DNA from: a virus | Lineage: Duplodnaviria; Heunggongvirae; Uroviricota; Caudoviricetes | Direction: 5' to 3' (one strand) | IMG/VR virus record: IMGVR_UViG_3300045988_152564 | DNA length: 55,949 nucleotides | Shown here: piece by piece, positions 1-9,002 of the stretch | Numbering within the stretch: position 1 is the stretch's first letter | Layout of the letters: the number at the start of each line of letters is the position of its first letter | The notes under the pieces: model-generated | Seen by the model: only the letters and a program-made list of their open reading frames with translations | What the model was told of the DNA's origin: nothing | The model's database searches: none | Program-made: the position numbers and the translations under genes

Positions 1-157
1 GCGTACCGGGTTGAGAAGCGGTGTAAGTGAACTGCAGTTGCCATGTTTTACGGCAGTGAGAGCAGAGATAGCGCTGATGTCCGGCGGTGCTTTTGCCGTT
101 ACGCACCACCCCGTCAGTAGCTGAACAGGAGGGACAGCTGATAGAAACAGAAGCCAC
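1..157 (-). CDS. insA: InsA of IS1, N-terminal part only (GTG start at 157)
   Basis: Minus-strand translation from 157 reads [52 protein letters not shown], matching remembered InsA. Confidence 0.85.
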
Positions 158-212
158 TGGAGCACCTCAAAAACACCATCATACACTAAATCAGTAAGTT
201 GGCAGCATCACC
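1..212 (-). mobile_element. IS1 end fragment (terminal inverted repeat plus 5' part of insA), cut by the window edge
   Basis: Reverse complement of 190-212 is GGTGATGCTGCCAACTTACTGAT, the IS1 terminal repeat; the element continues past position 1. Confidence 0.85.
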
Positions 213-316
213 AAAAATGGAATTATGCACTGGCTTACTTAATGTTCAGTGAAACATTAAAATCTCCTTGATGTGGAAACAATCATTTTCTGTATGTGCT
301 GGTGGGTACCTGTAGT

Positions 317-679
317 TCAGCTTTCGTTGGCATTTAACTTCGTCTTTGCTTTCTCCACCAGCAACTTCCAGATGCCTATTTCATTAGCAGCCGCCTTGAT
401 GGCGGCATAAAAAGCATCTTGCTGATCGTAACGCTGAATCTGTTTTTTCAGTTTTGCCTCCACCAATTTAATTTCATTACGTGCTTTCTGAAGCCGCAGC
501 GCCGCCCGGTTACGTCTGTTCTTGTATAGCGCGTTAATCTCTGATAATTGCTTTAATTTACCAGCCTGACTGCGGATTATCGCCTCTCTGACTTCTGCCG
601 TGCGTCTCATCTGATCTCTTAAGAGTTCACCGTTTTCGATAATTCTTTCAAGGTGTTTGATGTGATCTGCAACTCTCAT
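317..679 (-). CDS. hypothetical protein (120 aa), first gene next to IS1
   Basis: ORF in track; start overlaps stop of upstream gene by 4 nt (676-679), suggesting translational coupling. Confidence 0.5.
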   Translation of the reverse strand: MRVADHIKHLERIIENGELLRDQMRRTAEVREAIIRSQAGKLKQLSEINALYKNRRNRAALRLQKARNEIKLVEAKLKKQIQRYDQQDAFYAAIKAAANEIGIWKLLVEKAKTKLNANES

Positions 680-1608
680 ACTTCACCCTCGCTTGTATCG
701 CCAGCATCCACCAGCGGCAATAAAGCCCTGGCCATCTTATGAACCAATAGTGCATCAATAATGCCAAGCGTATGCCCCGGCTTAATGTTTAATGCCGCCT
801 CAAGGTGACACCTTTCCAGGCCACTTTTCTCGGCTTGTTTATGATGATCTGGTGTAATAACGTCGCCCAAAACACGGCTAATTCTTTCTCGTAATTGCTG
901 GGTGCCAGCACACTTGATCGCTGTATCGTGGAGACGGTTAACCAGTTCGCGATAAACATGCGGCTTAATTCGGATACGTTCACCGGTGACGCCCTTTCCT
1001 GGTGCTGGCACCGAACTATCCGGAATATCCGGATAGTTGCCAGCCTCGTAAGCTACCCGCAGCCAGTGCATGAATGTTTCAGTGGACACACAACCACAGT
1101 CCACATCGATTTTCCCGCGTTGCTGTTCCAGCCATTGCCCAAAATCCAACCTGTAAGTCTTACTTTCAAGTTCATCACCATTGAACTCGACTTTCTGCGA
1201 CGCTATGAGAGCTGATTCGTATTGTTCGCGAGTGACAACTGACTGGTATTCATCGCTATCAAGGTCACCAATTGGAAGCTCAATCTCACAACAAAAATTG
1301 CGCCCAAAGAAAGTGTCTTTTTTGTGGTCTGAGCCAAAAGCAAAAGTCGCGCATGGTGCCATTAAATTGACACTGGGTAGGTAACAATAACTCATTCCAT
1401 CAGGCCACCCGCCGCACTTAGGCAGTTCCTTCACTAACAAGTCGATAAACTTCATTTTTTTATCATCTTTGCAAGCCGCCAAAGCCATTTGGGCAAGTGC
1501 CAATACTTCATCTGCCGTATATCCAGCACCGTGACCATACATTTCGATACGGGAAATAATCTCTGATATACGCTCTTCAGTGATTCTGGTCATTTCTTTT
1601 TGCGCCAT
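676..1608 (-). CDS. hypothetical protein (310 aa); alternative start at 1593 overlapping the upstream stop
   Basis: Long ORF in a co-oriented gene string; no motif recognised. Confidence 0.55.
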   Translation of the reverse strand: MAQKEMTRITEERISEIISRIEMYGHGAGYTADEVLALAQMALAACKDDKKMKFIDLLVKELPKCGGWPDGMSYCYLPSVNLMAPCATFAFGSDHKKDTFFGRNFCCEIELPIGDLDSDEYQSVVTREQYESALIASQKVEFNGDELESKTYRLDFGQWLEQQRGKIDVDCGCVSTETFMHWLRVAYEAGNYPDIPDSSVPAPGKGVTGERIRIKPHVYRELVNRLHDTAIKCAGTQQLRERISRVLGDVITPDHHKQAEKSGLERCHLEAALNIKPGHTLGIIDALLVHKMARALLPLVDAGDTSEGEV

Positions 1609-1964
1609 TTCTTTTCACATTCCTTAGTCCATTTTTCAATGTTCATTTTGGCAATATCAGTCATTCCATCACCTAAGAAATACTTTCTCCGGTACGTCTT
1701 GCACTTAAACCACACTACAACAGCCACCAGCCAGAAAATAAAAGGCCATACAGCAATACCAACTCCAGCCGCGATAAAGCCCAATAGCCATAAATGAAGC
1801 TCTCCAACTTCTGTTTGCGGCAATATTCTTAAAGAATTAAGCAGCAGACTGAAGGAATAGTCGTATGCATTGGCGGTATAAGACATGCAATCCATATAAT
1901 TAAAGTCATAGCCTGCGGCTGCCGCCCATAATGGGCGGTCAAGAAAATGTTTTAGTGTCATCAT
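1590..1964 (-). CDS. small membrane protein (124 aa)
   Basis: Hydrophobic stretch LWLLGFIAAGVGIAVWPFIFWLVAVVVWF followed by basic tail. Confidence 0.5.
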   Translation of the reverse strand: MMTLKHFLDRPLWAAAAGYDFNYMDCMSYTANAYDYSFSLLLNSLRILPQTEVGELHLWLLGFIAAGVGIAVWPFIFWLVAVVVWFKCKTYRRKYFLGDGMTDIAKMNIEKWTKECEKKWRKKK

Positions 1965-1970
1965 ATAAAT

Positions 1971-2360
1971 TTAAGGTTCAGACCAGTTATCTTCAATAGC
2001 AATGCTTAATCTTTGTAGCCATTCTGCTAATTTCAGCATTGCTTCTCTTTCGCTTAAACCACGAGGAAAATCATCAAGCGAAATTGTTGGCTTGAAGCCC
2101 CCGTAATTATCTATTTCAACAGTCAGATTTTGCTCCAGCACGGTATTCCTTACGCGGCTATTGTGCCGAAGCAAATATACTGAACGTGATTTATTGGTTT
2201 TATGGTCAAACTGATATTCGGTAAGTATCATCTGGCTTTTGCCATGACTATTACCTCTCCACATACTTACCTCACTTAATAAAACAACTCCATGCGTAGT
2301 TGATGATTTTTTCCCACGTAATATAAATCTGCACTCCGGCAGTAAAACCAAAGCCAACAA
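1971..2360 (-). CDS. hypothetical protein (129 aa or shorter)
   Basis: ORF in co-oriented string; no motif recognised. Confidence 0.4.
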   Translation of the reverse strand: MLALVLLPECRFILRGKKSSTTHGVVLLSEVSMWRGNSHGKSQMILTEYQFDHKTNKSRSVYLLRHNSRVRNTVLEQNLTVEIDNYGGFKPTISLDDFPRGLSEREAMLKLAEWLQRLSIAIEDNWSEP

Positions 2361-2442
2361 TTGCTGAAAAAATCAAAACATTTACTTTTGACATTATAAA
2401 TTTTCTCTCGGTGTCGTAGGTGATAGCACCATAATTGATAAT

Positions 2443-2694
2443 TTAGTGAGTTAGCAGTTCCATTTTTTGGATGATTTCCGCATGAGCATCATCGTTATCA
2501 ACACTTAACTCGTTTAATGCCTCTCGCACTACATCAACTTCTTCTGGTTGGAAGAAGTCATCTCGGTAGTCACCAAATAGAACCGAAACAAGCCTGCCAC
2601 CAGCAACATCAAGATTGGCGCTAACAGGTGGCTCTTTGCCATCCTCAAATTCGACTACAAAAGTTATTTTTCCCATCGTTACCACCAGCGACAA
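2443..2694 (-). CDS. hypothetical acidic protein (83 aa)
   Basis: ORF in co-oriented string. Confidence 0.4.
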   Translation of the reverse strand: MSLVVTMGKITFVVEFEDGKEPPVSANLDVAGGRLVSVLFGDYRDDFFQPEEVDVVREALNELSVDNDDAHAEIIQKMELLTH

Positions 2695-2758
2695 ATTGAA
2701 TACAAACCCAGTGCTGCCGCCATCACAATTCCTACCGTGGTGAATGCTTCAGGCCAGC

Positions 2759-3646
2759 TCATTGATTCACCTCCTGCGGCGGTTCTGGTAGCGGCATCCA
2801 GAACAAGGCGTTCCCTAACCACGATAAAGTGCCGTCGCTCAACTCCACGTATTCCCCTTGCACCTGGCCTGCCATATACTCGCCGTGCTTTGAATAAATT
2901 AAAATCCAATCATCTTGAGCGGGCATTCGCTCACTACAGCTTATCCAACTATCCGGAGTTACCGGAGAGTTGCCAGCCAGTCTACGCAAAACAGCCTTAA
3001 CAGCCTCAATACGGTCATCATCGCAATTTTCCAGCGTATCTATGCGGTCGAGCATGATGATGGCGTTATCAATATCAGGATTGCCAGTCCACTCATTACC
3101 GCGATTGGATTCGGCAGCCTGGTTGCCAGATGCTGGCTGATTGTCGGCTTGGCTATAGCTAACAGCACGGCAGGCATCCTCTACGTTCTTCACTGCATCT
3201 GCGCAGTAGTTATAGCGATTGCATTCCACTAACTTCTGCTTGAGATTTTCAATTGCTTGCGCGACATCAGCCTGTATTGGCGGAACGGCTGTTTGCTCTC
3301 GAACGTCATTAGTCGCTATCGGTTCTGCTGCCAACTGACTGGCATATTTGTTAATGGTAACGATAAGCTCTTGCTCGGCCTCATCCAGACAATCACCGAT
3401 ACCTCGCCTGTCACCGTCAAAATCATCGAAATCGGCACGAATCCTGGCAACCTCCCGGATTGCGGACAACACTTCACCAGGAATAAGCGGAGAGTTGCCC
3501 GATAGTACATTCTGCTCCAGCGATGCCAGAGCAATTCGTGCCAGTTCTTCCGCTTCTTCTGCTGGCAGTACAACGTTGCTACCAGGTCCGTATGTTTCGC
3601 GCCACTGCCTGATTGTCAGCAGTCGCTCTTTGGTAATAGTGGTCAT
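2759..3646 (-). CDS. DUF551-type prophage protein (295 aa)
   Basis: C-terminus WISCSERMPAQDDWILIYSKHGEYMAGQ...LFWMPLPEPP resembles the DUF551 domain common in lambdoid prophages. Confidence 0.6.
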   Translation of the reverse strand: MTTITKERLLTIRQWRETYGPGSNVVLPAEEAEELARIALASLEQNVLSGNSPLIPGEVLSAIREVARIRADFDDFDGDRRGIGDCLDEAEQELIVTINKYASQLAAEPIATNDVREQTAVPPIQADVAQAIENLKQKLVECNRYNYCADAVKNVEDACRAVSYSQADNQPASGNQAAESNRGNEWTGNPDIDNAIIMLDRIDTLENCDDDRIEAVKAVLRRLAGNSPVTPDSWISCSERMPAQDDWILIYSKHGEYMAGQVQGEYVELSDGTLSWLGNALFWMPLPEPPQEVNQ

Positions 3647-3656
3647 GTGTTAGTCC

Positions 3657-3962
3657 TTATCCTGCTGTACTTTCAACTGATGAGGGGAATAAAATCTTTT
3701 CATCAAATCCGGCATTCATATCATGAACAGCAACACACCAATCCATTGACGAACGATTATCAAGAGCCTCCATGATTTCATCCATGCGGCGCAGGTCATA
3801 CAGGTAAATGCTTTTATCGCCAATGGTGTAAAAACCAATTTTTTTCGGTGATGGGCAGCGATCAAGAACGTCCTGTAATTCGCTCAACCATGCTTGTTCT
3901 TTTTTTGTCAAAGTTGCCATATCACTCTCCTTTGATGCCAATGCCAGCGGCGCGGGAATCAT
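3657..3962 (-). CDS. hypothetical protein (likely starts at 3920, MATLTKKEQ)
   Basis: ORF in track; internal ATG removes overlap with upstream gene. Confidence 0.4.
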   Translation of the reverse strand: MIPAPLALASKESDMATLTKKEQAWLSELQDVLDRCPSPKKIGFYTIGDKSIYLYDLRRMDEIMEALDNRSSMDWCVAVHDMNAGFDEKILFPSSVESTAG

Positions 3963-4479
3963 CCCATCGCTTTACTTCTTCACGAATTACGTCAATGCAT
4001 TCTTTCGAATCCATTAGGTAATCTTCATCAAAAAGACGTTCCTGTTCGTTTTCTATCGCAACAATGATTGCTTCAACTAACTTTTGTGCCTGAGAACCAC
4101 TTTCTAACTCTGCTATGCGCTTACTCCCATCAGAGATAACACCTTCGTAATACTCACGCTGCTCGTTGAGTTTTGATTTTGCTGCTTCCAGCTCAACGCG
4201 CAACTTCCCTACCGTTAGTGCAATATCCTCGTTCTCCTGGTCGCGGGATTTGATGTATTGCTGGTTCCTTTCCCGTTCATCCAGTAGTGCCAAAGCAATC
4301 TTTGGATTAAAGGCAGCAATAAATTCAGCGTTGTTTTTCAGAACGTGTTGCGCAATGGCCTGACTACTTAGTCGGACCTCATAACCACGTGCGCCACGGT
4401 GTGGTTTATATGAGTCCCAGTCTCCCCACGTTGCCTTCTCTGCCGCCTCACGCAGTGCCTGATAGTCAATCTTGTTCAT
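3922..4479 (-). CDS. Ead/Ea22-like protein (185 aa)
   Basis: N-terminus MNKIDYQALREAAEKATWGDW typical of Ead/Ea22-like prophage proteins; central coiled coil. Confidence 0.6.
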   Translation of the reverse strand: MNKIDYQALREAAEKATWGDWDSYKPHRGARGYEVRLSSQAIAQHVLKNNAEFIAAFNPKIALALLDERERNQQYIKSRDQENEDIALTVGKLRVELEAAKSKLNEQREYYEGVISDGSKRIAELESGSQAQKLVEAIIVAIENEQERLFDEDYLMDSKECIDVIREEVKRWDDSRAAGIGIKGE

Positions 4480-4480
4480 G

Positions 4481-4813
4481 TCACATCACCCTGAATCCGT
4501 TGCATTTACGTAAGAAATCGCAGATATAGCCCTTCATTTTTTCATGCCAATCTCGATCATTCCCATTGCACCAACCATCAGGTGGAGTCCAGTTTTCTAT
4601 CAGAGCAGCCATTTTCTTTGCTTTCGCCGGAGTAGCTGTTGCGGTATCGCAGTAATGACGAGTGTCAACCAACGCATCCATACCATCGATATCAAGTACG
4701 CAAAACCATGTGTGATTCGGAATTCCTACAGGTGGTATTTGTTGCCCACGTCGACGTTTATCAATAAGATATACACTCACTGCTTGCCTCCTTTGCGAAT
4801 CTGTTCCGCCCAT
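4481..4813 (-). CDS. hypothetical protein (110 aa)
   Basis: ORF in co-oriented string, Cys/His-rich. Confidence 0.45.
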   Translation of the reverse strand: MGGTDSQRRQAVSVYLIDKRRRGQQIPPVGIPNHTWFCVLDIDGMDALVDTRHYCDTATATPAKAKKMAALIENWTPPDGWCNGNDRDWHEKMKGYICDFLRKCNGFRVM

Positions 4814-5502
4814 TCTTCAAGGGATTTCTCCGCATATTCACCGGACAGGCCATCAATCGGATGCGGTTCATTAGCCAACTCTTCTTTCGCTGACAAAATC
4901 ATGCGTGTAACGTCGAAAACTTCACGCAAAGATTTATTGATAAATCCGTGATTGAACGCAGCAGCAAGACGGCTGGCGGTATAGTTAATCCCCTCGTTGC
5001 GTGCTTCCGCACGAATTTCAGCCAGAAAAGCATCGGTGGCTGAAATATTTCCTGTTGCCTTCATGGCCCCCAAAATAACCAGAACGCCATCTCGCCCAAC
5101 CTCCTCAGCGATAACCTCGGTGTTGTCGCCAACAACATCGCAGAATGCCTGAACTGCCTTACGAGCCAGCTCATTCTCCGCCGCCAGCGCCGCGCACTTG
5201 GCCTCAAGAGCGGCAACCACTTCCTGATGGTCTTTGTACTTAACGTATGAGCCGGAGATGTCATCACCTTCGGTGTTTAGCCATGCGTCATTGCAATTCA
5301 CTGCGTAGGTTCTGATGCTCATGTTGATGCTCTCCCGCCCCTGACAGACGCTAGGCCAGTCAATAAAGTATCCGCAATGCCTACCCTCAGACGTGCGCGC
5401 AGGATAAATGCCGTTATGACCCGGCAAAATATATGCTACCCATTCATCTTGCGTTGCCTGTTTCGCCGCCTCGCGCAGTTCTTTATAGTTAATTTCGCTC
5501 AC
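4777..5502 (-). CDS. Ead/Ea22-like protein (241 aa), paralogue of 3922..4479
   Basis: N-terminus MSEINYKELREAAKQATQDEW; C-terminal tail EQIRKGGKQ. Confidence 0.6.
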   Translation of the reverse strand: MSEINYKELREAAKQATQDEWVAYILPGHNGIYPARTSEGRHCGYFIDWPSVCQGRESINMSIRTYAVNCNDAWLNTEGDDISGSYVKYKDHQEVVAALEAKCAALAAENELARKAVQAFCDVVGDNTEVIAEEVGRDGVLVILGAMKATGNISATDAFLAEIRAEARNEGINYTASRLAAAFNHGFINKSLREVFDVTRMILSAKEELANEPHPIDGLSGEYAEKSLEEWAEQIRKGGKQ

Positions 5503-5738
5503 TGGTTGCCTCCTTTACGGATCTGCGCTGCGATGCGCGAAAAAAAAGACTCCCGCGTATGACTGTTAAGAGCTGGCGCGAACGCTGCGTTAAGAACAGC
5601 AGCATCACAGCCGTCATCAATATAGAGCGCAATTTTTTTCTCCAGGCGCGCTTTGGCTTCCTGCAACTGCATACCCCGGCACGCACGCGGGATATAATCA
5701 GCAATTTGAGCGATAGCCTTTTCGTTCTGTTTAAACAT
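5499..5738 (-). CDS. small protein (79 aa) sharing the Ea22-like C-terminal tail
   Basis: C-terminus AAQIRKGGNQ parallels EQIRKGGKQ of 4777..5502. Confidence 0.4.
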   Translation of the reverse strand: MFKQNEKAIAQIADYIPRACRGMQLQEAKARLEKKIALYIDDGCDAAVLNAAFAPALNSHTRESFFSRIAAQIRKGGNQ

Positions 5739-5934
5739 GCTTCACCTCGATAGGCTTGATGGTGTCTAACAGCAGTCGGCGGCGCGTATTTTCTGCAAAA
5801 TGGCGGCGTCCAGTTTCTTTGTGGTAAAACTCGTTTTTGCCGACGACCCACATCCGCTCTGTTTGGTGCAGTTTTTTTACCTGCGGACCGTCTTTGGTGA
5901 TCACGGTGCCGGTATGGGTTTTTACGATTGTCAT
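5731..5934 (-). CDS. hypothetical small basic protein (67 aa)
   Basis: ORF in track, overlaps downstream start by 8 nt. Confidence 0.4.
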   Translation of the reverse strand: MTIVKTHTGTVITKDGPQVKKLHQTERMWVVGKNEFYHKETGRRHFAENTRRRLLLDTIKPIEVKHV

Positions 5935-6017
5935 GCCACTACCTATTCGAACAGATGAACGAGACAGGCCGATGCTCGTCCACCTGAAAAACTGACGATT
6001 TGATGCATACTCACGGT

Positions 6018-6746
6018 TTATTCCTGAATGCGCTTAAACTCGATTACCCACACCCAGGGATTAGCGTTCCAGCTTTCTTCACCATAGATGGATTCCCACA
6101 GACGCTGGAACGCAACCTTGGCCATTGCGAAATCCCCCTTGGGAGTAAGGAATGTTCCCGGGTGATCAGGAAGCAAACTTCCAGCAGGCGGAACGCCCTC
6201 ATCCCTTGCATCGCATTCGCTGATATCGTTCAACCGCTCAACGCGCACGTTGGTAATTTCCAACAGGATGCGTGATGCCCATCGCGGCATGTGAATTGAT
6301 GGACGCCACCCACCATCAAACTTTTCATTCACAGTGTGAGGTTTCCAGTCGGCATCATCGGGTATCGACCATAAACCGTAATCACCAGGCTTTTGCTCAC
6401 AACTGGCCCGATAAATCCTTGCTGCGTTCTTCTCATCGCCACGACAAAGGTTGTCGTTCCAGTCCACACTGCAACCATCTTCATTGCCTAATATCGCCCA
6501 TGTTTCACGAACCCAAATTCGATCGCCGACGATACCAAAGGGGCAATTGAAAACACTGCTTACACCATCAGCCCCGTACCACTGAAAACCTGCACCAATT
6601 TCCCTAACCATCACTGGTGCTTCTGGACCAACTTCCGCAGGCTGATTTTTCATTATCCGCCGCGTCTGCGTTTTCCTTCCTTCGAGGATGGCTCGGACCA
6701 TCTCATCGTTGAAAATCATGCCGCGCTCTTTCACTTCGCCTTTCAT
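6018..6746 (-). CDS. hypothetical protein, possibly ASCH-like N-terminal domain (242 aa)
   Basis: N-terminal MIFNDEMVRAILEGRKTQTRR pattern resembles ASCH-type domains; assignment from memory only. Confidence 0.45.
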   Translation of the reverse strand: MKGEVKERGMIFNDEMVRAILEGRKTQTRRIMKNQPAEVGPEAPVMVREIGAGFQWYGADGVSSVFNCPFGIVGDRIWVRETWAILGNEDGCSVDWNDNLCRGDEKNAARIYRASCEQKPGDYGLWSIPDDADWKPHTVNEKFDGGWRPSIHMPRWASRILLEITNVRVERLNDISECDARDEGVPPAGSLLPDHPGTFLTPKGDFAMAKVAFQRLWESIYGEESWNANPWVWVIEFKRIQE

Positions 6747-6923
6747 GCATCCCCCTTACCCATGCGCGACGATGCCGCCAAAAGTGATAGAGAACAGCCA
6801 GAAATAGATCGCGGCCATAATGATTTTGAATGCCGTGTTCATATTTTCAGCTCCTGTGATTGATTGGATACATGCCGCGCCTTACGGCATGTTTTTATTT
6901 TCACTTTCTCTGTTTTAAAAATC

Positions 6924-6940
6924 AAGATTTATTAGAGCAA
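6924..6940 (-). promoter_or_regulatory. C1-operator-like 17-mer (reverse complement ATTGCTCTAATAAATCT)
   Basis: 16/17 match to the P1 C1 operator consensus ATTGCTCTAATAAATTT; lies upstream of the 6018..6746 gene string. Confidence 0.6.
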
Positions 6941-7447
6941 TTATTGTTGATGGAGAAGCGCGTTTTCATACTCCCTGACCATTAACGTAAGTACGCCGTG
7001 ACTCCTGAAAACACGCGCCACTTCAATCTTATCTTCCAGCGCGAACGCAATTTTACTTAGACCAATTTTCTTCAGGAGATCAATCTTTGCTGGACCGTCA
7101 TTTCTGTCATCGGTGGCAGGACGCATAGATAGCAAAGGCTCCGCCCCATTTGTTACGTGCTTACGCAACCAGGCTCGTGTTTTATCCCTGGCTATCTCAC
7201 AGCGCCCGGTTACAAACCAGAGGGTGTAAATGCCGGACAACTGGCGCACCATATCAATAACTGGAGTGATGGGAGCATCAGTGTCACAGGCAAGGTTAAA
7301 CTCGTTCCAGTGCTCTGTTAATGCACCTTTGCCAGGTGGTGGAAGTAAATGCAGCCTGTCTTCCGTTGCCTCTGATATCGTCCCATCAATATCTACTATG
7401 ACGATGTACGGACGTTCCTGGTGTGCGTGTTTATTGAAAATACTCAA
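6941..7447 (-). CDS. HAD-superfamily phosphatase-like protein (168 aa)
   Basis: N-terminal IVIVDIDGTIS (DxDGT motif I of HAD hydrolases). Confidence 0.6.
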   Translation of the reverse strand: MSIFNKHAHQERPYIVIVDIDGTISEATEDRLHLLPPPGKGALTEHWNEFNLACDTDAPITPVIDMVRQLSGIYTLWFVTGRCEIARDKTRAWLRKHVTNGAEPLLSMRPATDDRNDGPAKIDLLKKIGLSKIAFALEDKIEVARVFRSHGVLTLMVREYENALLHQQ

Positions 7448-7519
7448 ATGCCCTCCTCATTGGACGAAAAAAATGCTGGTGGGAGCACTCCACCAGCATT
7501 AAAAGTGACACTGTAACTA

Positions 7520-8782
7520 TCAGCGAACGTAAATAGTGCCGCCGTTCTCTTTTTCCCATGCATCGCTACGTGCATAGCAAACATCGAGAAGTCTTCTTGC
7601 CGCAGTTTCCTCTAAACCCAATTCGACAACCAACTGCTCATGACGGCGGGTAACCACATCAAACAGGGTATGCAGCCCTTTAGTTGCCAGATCATCAATG
7701 AATTCCGGTTCGAACGGCAGCTCTGCATCTGCCAACATAACCTCTTGCGCCCACTCAACTCGACGGACCAATTCCGGGCGACGGCTTTCCATCTCTTTAC
7801 AGATCAATTCATGGAAGAACTCTACCCAACCTTCCGGCTGGAACTCGCGGAAAATTGCCAACGGCTGGAAGTTTGGCATCAACCATTCGTTGATTCGGAT
7901 ATCAATGGCATAGCCCATGTCGCAGCAGAACTGATAAGCAAAGTCCAGCTTAGAAACGATATAAGGACGCTCGTTATTGAACTCTTTAGGCGATGAGATC
8001 CCATAAGCCAGGAGGCGCGGGAAGAAGGAGATTTGCCCTAACGTCGGATGAAGTTTGCTTGCAGGGAAACGGCGCTCAGTAATGCCATACATTTCCTTCT
8101 TGAGCGTCGCAAATTTGGCATTCTCATTAACCAGCGCGGTAACCTCTGCTTTTTTATTAGCAAATGCCACGCGCGCCTCGCTTGCATCTTTAATAGTTTT
8201 TTTGAGCTGTTGGTTAAGGTCGGCGACCTGCTTACGCAGTTCCTGTCGCTCGCTTTTAGCTTTGTTATAGCGTTTCTCAAGGTTAAAAGGATCAAGTTTC
8301 ATGATCTCTTTATATTGAGATTTTAGCGTTGAAATCTGTGAGTTCCGCAGTTCAACCATCGCGGTCATTTCATTGAGTTTTGTTTCCAGCTCAATGCTTA
8401 TACGTTCGGCATTATCAGCACGCTGGTTGGCGTCATGCGTCGCATCGTCGATCGCGTCCTGTTGCTGGCGTTTCAAATGTTCAATTTGCAGCTGAAGCTC
8501 TTCAATTTCTTTACCCTTCAGACCGAGATCCAACTGCATATTTTCAGCTGCATCTACCAGGGAGTTATGGCTATCAGCTTCTGCGTTATAAACATCAATA
8601 AGCTGTGCGTGAAGCATCTCCGCTGACTGAACCGCATTATCAAAAAAACGCGCTGTGAGGTCATCACAACTAACGCGGCGTTGCGCGGCCCGGATGTTCT
8701 GGATAATGGCCGGGATACCGGCATTCAGGACGTCAGGGATAGATACATTTTCGATTGATTGGTTTTGTGCTGAAGTGATCAT
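7520..8782 (-). CDS. coiled-coil protein with unknown C-terminal domain (420 aa)
   Basis: About 230 aa of heptad-like charged sequence (QLQIEHLKRQQQ...) followed by a globular C-terminus. Confidence 0.55.
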   Translation of the reverse strand: MITSAQNQSIENVSIPDVLNAGIPAIIQNIRAAQRRVSCDDLTARFFDNAVQSAEMLHAQLIDVYNAEADSHNSLVDAAENMQLDLGLKGKEIEELQLQIEHLKRQQQDAIDDATHDANQRADNAERISIELETKLNEMTAMVELRNSQISTLKSQYKEIMKLDPFNLEKRYNKAKSERQELRKQVADLNQQLKKTIKDASEARVAFANKKAEVTALVNENAKFATLKKEMYGITERRFPASKLHPTLGQISFFPRLLAYGISSPKEFNNERPYIVSKLDFAYQFCCDMGYAIDIRINEWLMPNFQPLAIFREFQPEGWVEFFHELICKEMESRRPELVRRVEWAQEVMLADAELPFEPEFIDDLATKGLHTLFDVVTRRHEQLVVELGLEETAARRLLDVCYARSDAWEKENGGTIYVR

Positions 8783-8783
8783 T

Positions 8784-9002
8784 TCAAAGTTCCGTATTAG
8801 CTTGTGCTTCGGTCATTTTTCCTAAGTATGAAGGAGGAAGGACTACGCAATTTGTATCCAGTCCCTCACCTATGGCAGCCTGTAAAATTCTGGCTAAGGT
8901 GAGTCTCTTGTTGCGATACCTGGTGATGACATGCCTGATACCGCCGGTCGGCGTAACAAAGGCGATCAGCCAGTAGTGATATTTCCGTCGGAATGGCCAC
9001 AT
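8784..9002 (-). CDS. small protein (72 aa), first gene behind the double operator
   Basis: ORF starts ~15 bp downstream of operator 9017..9033; stop abuts start of the 420-aa gene. Confidence 0.4.
   Translation of the reverse strand: MWPFRRKYHYWLIAFVTPTGGIRHVITRYRNKRLTLARILQAAIGEGLDTNCVVLPPSYLGKMTEAQANTEL

Follow-up and report, generated by a model that had tools for sequence, protein, structure and literature searches.

What raises the question at this locus is a block of 13 genes, in part resembling the accessory genes of lambdoid prophages, that lies between an end of the insertion sequence IS1 and a P1-type operator: where does the block come from, and does it belong there? It occupies positions 317-6746 of the IMG/VR virus record IMGVR_UViG_3300045988_152564, a stretch of 55,949 nucleotides assigned to the Caudoviricetes and referred to here, at its full length, as the window. 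An initial annotation, made from the sequence alone, had regarded the block as IS1-flanked lambdoid cargo taken up as a mosaic acquisition. The presence of P1 backbone genes on both sides of the block identifies the window, on gene content, as a piece of a P1-like phage-plasmid, and the block itself is an ordinary, catalogued and already known variable accessory operon of these elements. We consider it distinctly probable that it is the natural long form of an early operon, called pmgT-pmgU-pmgV in P1 and hea in P7. Canonical P1 has most likely lost the middle of this operon by an illegitimate deletion of 5.0 kb, which left the first gene joined, in the wrong frame, to that of a 310-residue protein. 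The main outcome is a correction: the block is no unusual IS1-borne acquisition but the form that a published variable slot usually takes, and identical copies of it are already present in RefSeq.

The slot and its expected expression

The first 9 kb of the window are identical to the Escherichia coli plasmids pNord122_1 (NZ_CP139854.1) and NZ_CP145648.1, and phage vB_EcoM-813R1 shows 99.4 % identity to them from position 213 on. To the right of the block lie pap, pmgS, ppp and pmgQ, all genes of the P1 backbone; to its left, as read in the identical plasmid, pmgV, upfM-O, hot, humD and phd/doc follow in an order collinear with P1. The block is thus located between pap and upfM/hot, the one fixed slot that the operon holds in a P1-like backbone. 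The variability of this place has been described before: in the account of P1-like phage-plasmids by Wang et al., variable region 8 comprises pmgT, pmgU, pmgV, upfM-O, hot, lxr and humD, and these authors describe pmgT of JL22 as "replaced" by a gene cluster with an Ea22 gene (PMC9603915). Further along the same backbone, the lxr region, approximately 700 bp long in P1, is reduced to about 67 bp in the humD-hot interval of pNord122_1 (L001 1557-1625, left of the window).

On comparison of the window with P7, RCS47, SJ46 and JL22, it was found that the head of the slot is conserved inwards to about position 6655 and its tail from about position 1166, and that P7 (the "hea operon"), RCS47, SJ46 and JL22 carry other gene sets between the same head and tail. 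The breakpoints had initially been placed at the IS1 and at the operator, a placement that does not survive this comparison, as the conserved flanks continue inwards past both. In tblastn searches, head and tail showed 99-100 % identity to P1, and the tail 95-98 % in P7 and pX14-3. At its head the slot keeps the C1 operator, the promoters, a leader hairpin, an open reading frame (ORF) of 28 residues and roughly the first 30 codons of the first gene, and at its tail the last ~160 codons of the 310-residue gene together with pmgV, the middle differing from element to element. A coverage of at least 80 % of the exact 5-kb block of the window was reached by 24 plasmids of PLSDB and by 30 complete genomes of E. 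coli; all 30 of these genomes carry it on a plasmid record, about 90-190 kb long and in most cases 91-120 kb, and none carries it on the chromosome.

All 13 annotated genes between 317 and 6746 are on the minus strand, in agreement with the leftward string of about 13 genes that had been noted behind the operator. Their spacing ranges from -19 to +10 nt, except for three gaps of 82-178 nt, and terminator-like sites within the block are no commoner than chance, so that both features fit a single operon. Scans for promoters and terminators gave nothing above shuffled expectation, and an Rfam search of window 1-9000 returned no family.

The operator, which the initial annotation had placed near 6924, is found at 6925-6941 on the minus strand (ATTGCTCTAATAAATCT), directly upstream of the block. 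It differs by one mismatch from the C1 repressor consensus, overlaps the operon promoters and is homologous in position to the annotated P1 operator OpmgT (formerly Op88). It is the only C1 operator near the block, no operator-like site being detected inside the block itself. The whole window has nine C1-operator-like sites against 0.29 expected by chance; the other eight, with 0-3 mismatches, lie at window 9017-44663, as expected for an immunity network of the P1 type.

Between the C1 operator and the first operon gene, the leader contains a hydrophobic ORF of 28 residues (6756-6842, minus strand; MNTAFKIIMAAIYFWLFSITFGGIVAHG), with a hydropathy of 2.10 and a Shine-Dalgarno (SD) sequence, caggag, before its ATG. 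The region of operator, leader and ORF is 98 % conserved among the window, P1, P7 and RCS47, and the ORF itself is 100 % identical in P1, P7 and RCS47, the sole nucleotide difference seen being synonymous. It is nevertheless left unannotated in these three elements and in the two window-identical records, a small coding sequence (CDS) over it being present only in pX14-3-tetA. The leader also has, just downstream of the promoter region, a G+C-rich hairpin (ACATGCCGTAAGGCGCGGCATGT, 6870-6892), which is terminator-like on the plus strand and is kept in P1, P7 and RCS47 with one loop change. Under such control, the genes of the block would be silent in the plasmid prophage and would be read as one early message once C1 repression is lifted.

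P1 as a probable deletion form of the operon

The initial annotation had set this gene string apart from canonical P1, and P1 indeed lacks a 5.0-kb segment of it (1052-6051): window 213-1051 and 6052-9000, which match P1 at 98 % identity, abut at P1 locus position 6840 with a junction microhomology of about 1 nt. The argument is carried by what P1 retains on the two sides of this junction. P1 PmgT comprises residues 1-231 of the 242-residue, ASCH-like protein encoded by the first gene of the window's operon, and its other 78 residues come from the 310-residue gene in the wrong reading frame; it departs from its family right after NPWV and loses the conserved end WVIEFKR, the last conserved strand. 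P1 PmgU is the last 111 residues of the 310-residue protein in frame, and PmgV is identical. On these alignments, P1 pmgT and pmgU look like deletion fragments of the 242- and 310-residue genes, a point that is possibly new. An insertion into the P1 arrangement would need to supply both missing gene parts in frame, namely the precise conserved C-terminus that marks the ASCH-like family and, for the 310-residue protein, its first 199 residues, and a 5.0-kb deletion in the P1 lineage is therefore the simpler event. As for frequency, a probe spanning pap to the operator was covered by at least 80 % in 591 plasmid records, of which five have the intact P1 junction.

Two more short forms of the operon were found. 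In GCA_018491215.1, window position 1030 is joined to 6042; the other, of the pX14-3-tetA type (22 plasmids), has an in-frame fusion protein of 392 residues, composed of the ASCH-like gene cut after NPWVWVI and parts of the 295-residue and 310-residue genes. Together with the P1 form, they account for approximately 5 % of the plasmids with the locus. The three independent rearrangements break within about 10 nt of one another at the 3' end of the ASCH-like gene (window 6042-6052), after NPWV, NPWVW or NPWVWVI, and this stretch is a possible hotspot of recombination. As to the left ends, those of P1 (1051) and GCA_018491215.1 (1030), which are independent deletions, lie in or beside a palindrome at 1015-1035 (CTATCCGGAATATCCGGATAG; repeat families D4 and I2), which encodes the linker AGNYPDIPDS of the 310-residue protein. 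A related 32-nt copy of the palindrome, at 2947-2978, encodes AGNSPVTPDS before the DUF551 domain of the 295-residue protein.

The IS1 stands apart from these events. The window begins with the left-end 212 bp of an IS1A on the minus strand (1-212), cut by the window start and showing 99.5 % identity to positions 557-768 of the IS1 of pNord122_1. In that identical plasmid, the element is complete with 768 bp (L001 2445-3212) and has an 8-bp duplication, AAAAATGG, on either side, the right copy being window 213-220; P1 has a single copy of the target (L002 6001-6008), and both flanks of the IS1 are collinear with P1. The insertion point is in the pmgV-upfM spacer, 104 bp past the pmgV stop and outside the operon, and most plasmids with the same block are without the IS1, their matches starting at 213. 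A search of the window for a second IS1 copy found none, 1-212 being its sole IS1 piece. There is thus no pair of IS1 copies at the two ends of a cargo, as in a composite transposon, and no IS1 end that coincides with a homology breakpoint, P1-collinear DNA continuing on both sides. What had been described as a truncated IS1 flanking the block is a complete element cut by the window edge, present at one side only. With its 8-bp duplication and P1-collinear flanks, the IS1 is a late simple insertion that had no role in the block's acquisition and marks no boundary of it; it would have arrived after the array.

These observations bear on the proposal that a P1 backbone recently acquired lambdoid cargo, with the IS1 and the operator as breakpoints. 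The IS1 that adjoins the block would suit it, but this element carries its own target duplication between P1-collinear flanks past pmgV and is missing in the majority of plasmids that have this block. The missing segment 1052-6051 of canonical P1 would suit it as well, yet an insert would have to be tailored to both gene ends as described above, and the P1 arrangement is present in 5 of about 591 plasmids. Even with the close lambdoid relatives of eight of the genes in its favour, we regard recent acquisition as largely refuted and very improbable. The earlier idea of a mosaic acquisition therefore stands as far as mosaicism is concerned and falls as far as recency is concerned, the direction of change being most likely the reverse, given the fragmentary pmgT and pmgU and the rarity of the P1 form.

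The rival accounts of what the operon does can be weighed on the same evidence. The names pmgT, pmgU and pmgV stand for a putative morphogenetic function, and this P1 annotation, along with that of the neighbouring pmgS as a head morphogenesis protein, would imply roles in building the virion. Such roles can hardly be credited, as P1 makes virions and forms plaques without the block, pmgT, pmgU and pmgV were nonessential in a CRISPR interference (CRISPRi) screen (PMC10695390), two of the three read as gene fragments, and homologues of the block's genes lie in non-structural early-left regions of lambdoid phages. The products would instead be dispensable accessory proteins acting on the host or on the lysis-lysogeny decision and not on virion assembly, a role weakly suggested by the analogy to Ea22 of lambda. 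This protein, a coiled-coil tetramer whose C-terminal domains can be swapped, favours lysogeny, as does Ea22 of Shiga toxin (Stx) phages (PMC7093339, PMC10834534). A further proposal sees in the array chiefly a counter-defence or host-takeover island, whose small acidic early proteins would inhibit host defences (restriction, abortive infection or others) and turn over in an arms race. Expected early expression under C1, hypervariable gene content at a fixed slot, dispensability in the laboratory and several small, acidic products with an isoelectric point (pI) of 4.2-5.4 speak for such an island; however, none of the tests supported this role, no protein matched a characterised anti-defence protein in the searches run, and the only experimental data on a family of the block, those on Ea22, concern the lysogeny decision. 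PADLOC, which models defence and not anti-defence genes, gave no match for 10 proteins, and NCBIfam gave nothing meaningful for 10 proteins. We consider this proposal possible but rather unlikely.

Several points weigh against the reading that we prefer, in which the block is the natural long form of the operon and P1 its deletion form. The choice of deletion over insertion is argued from parsimony and frequency and not from a rooted tree of P1-like elements; five natural plasmids with the exact P1 junction indicate that this form persists in nature; and the view that long arrays are the norm is an estimate from probe counts, not from the length of every plasmid. The single C1-controlled early transcript is read from the DNA and the P1 annotation, and the three larger intergenic gaps of 82-178 nt could house internal promoters. 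No protein of the block has a demonstrated function, and the Ea22-like pair of the window differs from lambda Ea22 in its C-terminal domains.

It is a tentative and, on balance, doubtful extension of this reading that P1 represents a naturally occurring deletion mutant, short of an exchangeable array under C1 control which most wild relatives keep, which shares the lambdoid exo-xis gene pool and which includes at least one uncharacterised counter-defence or lysis-lysogeny effector. If true, the absence of this effector would have been overlooked because P1 is the model phage, and a recombination hotspot would account for the deletions and in-frame fusions that recur at two points, the end of the ASCH-like gene and the palindromic AGNYPDIPDS linker. 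P1 pmgT and pmgU are still annotated as putative morphogenetic genes, and conclusions on the operon that are based on P1 may not hold for wild relatives of this phage. As a source in which to look for modulators of lysis and lysogeny or for counter-defence genes common to two very different families of temperate phages, the array is reasonable, though unproven.

Gene content and mosaic structure

All 13 genes match PHROG families at E <= 1e-42, the function label of every one of these families being "unknown"; all of the genes described below are on the minus strand, and two of the products are predicted membrane proteins. The first annotated gene (6018-6746) encodes the 242-residue protein, the full-length form of P1 PmgT, with 99 % identity to PmgT residues 1-232. 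This protein had been called ASCH-like, and the name is supported at the level of the fold, with large insertions in the core, but not by the protein's own sequence, for which no ASCH hidden Markov model (HMM) was matched in Pfam, even at E <= 10, or in NCBIfam; PDB sequence and profile searches gave nothing useful. An AlphaFold2 (AF2) model built on an alignment of 65 sequences reached a predicted local distance difference test (pLDDT) score of 86.7 and replaced an earlier, poor model from 25 close homologues (pLDDT 65.9). This model has the ASCH beta-barrel fold: in the Foldseek ranking against the PDB, ASCH proteins take all of the first nine places (3s9x, YqfB, EF3133, PH0355, ZmASCH), with a probability of up to 1.00 and a target-normalised template modelling score (TM-score) of up to 0.74, but with E-values of only 4e-3 to 0.5. 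The curated threshold of Pfam ASCH (PF04266) is not reached by the 242-residue protein, and this Pfam model is matched by 5 of its 65 relatives, the best with an E-value of 1.2e-4. The family is large (45,230 cluster representatives at E <= 1e-3), the C-terminal end NPWVWVIEFKR is kept in 24 diverse full-length relatives, and the Prokaryotic Genome Annotation Pipeline (PGAP) now labels the protein as ASCH domain-containing. Considering its fold, it probably binds or modifies RNA or nucleosides. In sequence, its GRKTxTxR near the N-terminus and VIEFK at the C-terminus likewise resemble YqfB.

Two proteins of the block, of 185 residues (3922-4479) and 241 residues (4777-5502), belong to the Ead/Ea22 family as had been proposed, matching Pfam Ead_Ea22 over residues 3-126 (E 4e-37) and 2-133 (E 1.4e-16), respectively. 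Both have the architecture of a short N-terminal segment, a central coiled coil and a variable C-terminal domain, and published descriptions of Ea22 present it as a mosaic in which the N-terminus and the coiled coil are conserved and the C-terminal domains, DUF551 among them, are variable and portable (PMC7093339, PMC10834534). The two have in common about 40 N-terminal residues, at 43 % identity, and differ in their C-terminal domains, which are unrelated. A recent duplication of the Ea22 genes was considered and rejected, as the N-terminal module alone is common to them, and the "duplicated Ea22-like tails" of the initial annotation are therefore not duplicates. PDB sequence searches with both proteins gave no significant match.

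The tail QIRKGG(K/N)Q on which that description was based has another explanation. The small ORF thought to carry only this tail encodes a 79-residue protein (5499-5738) with a family of its own, phrog_1344 (E 2e-52). BLASTP detects only the last 8-9 residues in common between this protein and the 241-residue protein, and a longer common domain was rejected on this result. The feature is a 28-nt gene junction and not a protein domain; its two copies, at 4776-4803 (CAGATTCGCAAAGGAGGCAAGCAGTGAG) and 5498-5525, both on the minus strand and in repeat family D5, are 89 % identical. The junction reads CAGAT(T/C)CG(C/T)AAAGGAGGCAA(G/C)CAGTGAG and consists of a strong ribosome-binding site, the SD sequence AAAGGAGG, followed by the GTG start of the next gene, which overlaps the TGA stop of the preceding one in the form GTGA. 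A scan of IMG/VR for the motif returned at least 120 loci, in which the ORFs ending in it fall into two main families and those starting in it into 15 clusters; among the matches listed, the downstream clusters include Ea22-like, DUF7739, methyltransferase-like, membrane and zinc-finger-like small proteins. Judged by this pattern, the "tail" is a common intercistronic joint, and it may also serve as a site of module exchange.

The other genes of the middle of the block code for a basic 67-residue protein (5731-5934; phrog_1226), a 99-residue DUF7739 protein (4481-4780; Pfam E 4e-19), an acidic 87-residue protein (3657-3920; GC content 41 %; phrog_1714, E 1e-50) and a 295-residue EaA-like modular protein (2759-3646). 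The last of these is the DUF551 protein recognised earlier, with DUF551 at the C-terminus of an intact ORF (residues 233-291, Pfam E 3e-10), and its first 45 residues resemble the start of the 310-residue protein. PGAP breaks this intact ORF into three, with the last 98 codons (DUF551) as a CDS and two upstream in-frame pieces labelled as "partial" pseudogenes, a split in RefSeq that looks like an annotation artefact arising from a mosaic protein.

Further to the left follow an acidic 77-residue protein with a pI of 4.2 (2443-2676; phrog_3876, E 5e-53), a 97-residue protein (1971-2264; GC 39 %; phrog_1258, E 3e-49) with 92 % identity to an RCS47 protein, and a predicted membrane protein of 124 residues (1590-1964; GC 41 %; phrog_2638; maximal 19-residue hydropathy 2.38) with 96 % identity to another protein of RCS47. 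The 310-residue protein, already singled out in the initial annotation, is encoded at 676-1608; separate segments of it are matched by several PHROG families, and the tail module that the slot conserves corresponds to its residues 148-310, which show 98 % identity to P7 and pX14-3. The operon ends with pmgV (317-679), whose basic product of 120 residues (phrog_4403) is 100 % identical to P1 PmgV and has otherwise only weak matches of the coiled-coil type.

The lambdoid label fits, on the matches found, about 3.2 kb and eight genes and not the whole block. Window 2766-5951, with these eight genes, has patches of 36-490 bp that show 86-98 % identity to lambdoid phages, Stx-converting and P22-like ones among them. 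Phage Ss-VASD has the same order of the 67-residue, 79-residue and Ea22 genes, and the P22-like APC_JM3.2 that of DUF7739, Ea22, small ORF and EaA; in both, the counterparts lie in the early-left region beside recombination and integration genes. At the protein level, DUF7739 is 100 % identical to its APC_JM3.2 homologue, the 67-residue protein 96 % to Ss-VASD gp15 and the 79-residue protein 89 % to Ss-VASD gp14, which likewise lies upstream of an Ea22 gene, and residues 1-127 of the 185-residue protein show 65 % identity to the Ea22-like protein of APC_JM3.2, within the same gene order. Of 5426 complete E. coli genomes, 3446 contain pieces of the block, for the most part on the chromosome (8155 chromosomal places). 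The initial description of the content as typical of lambdoid early-left regions and not of P1 holds for 2766-5951, but not for the left third of the block (1170-2760; GC 39-42 %), where DNA matches are mainly to P1-like phages. Beyond these, the left third has only matches of about 290 bp at 65-67 % identity to phiKO2 and a few Salmonella and Klebsiella phages, and lambdoid or Stx matches of about 80 bp at its right edge. The 124-, 97- and 77-residue genes (1590-2676) have a GC content of 39-42 %, against 44-51 % in the other annotated genes of the block with the exception of the 87-residue gene, and at the DNA level they are found mainly in other P1-like elements; their low GC and this distribution suggest a source other than that of the lambdoid-type genes. 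The eight middle genes belong to the gene pool of the lambdoid exo-xis (ea) region. Their exchange with lambdoid prophages resident in the cell may proceed by recombination at short joints that are conserved, such as the AGN.P..PDS linker, the N-terminal module of Ea22 and the 28-nt junction with its SD sequence.

Comparison with known systems

At the level of a single product, the 242-residue protein shares its fold with ASCH proteins such as the ac4C amidohydrolase YqfB of E. coli, ZmASCH, PH0355 and PDB 3s9x, and differs from them in approximately 130 residues of insertions and in having no Pfam ASCH match of its own.

At the level of the array, the closest parallel outside P1-like elements is the lambdoid exo-xis (ea) region. 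The Ead/Ea22, EaA/DUF551, DUF7739, 67-, 79- and 87-residue families are common to both, as are a mosaic build with swappable C-terminal domains and, in two sub-blocks, the local gene order. However, the lambdoid region lies between the recombination genes and xis/int within the PL operon, whereas the array of the window is set in a plasmid-prophage backbone, flanked by pap, pmgS and pmgV and placed under P1 C1, and its left third (1170-2760) is without a close lambdoid counterpart.

Among P1-like elements, the hea operon of P7 (upf86.8 to upf90.8) and the arrays of RCS47, SJ46 and JL22 have the same slot, head and tail, and each includes an Ead/Ea22-like gene and modular proteins of the EaA/DUF551 type. 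P7 differs in a predicted tyrosine phosphatase, in the 432-residue Upf89.5 and in a first gene only 49 % identical to that of the window. The pmgT-pmgU-pmgV operon of P1 lies at the same locus with the same operator, promoter region, leader and 28-residue ORF, and matches the window at 98-100 % over codons 1-231 of the first gene, the last 111 codons of the 310-residue gene and pmgV. It differs in being without the 5.0 kb between 1051 and 6052, which leaves it with a pmgT that ends in a frameshifted tail of 78 residues and a pmgU that is a C-terminal fragment.

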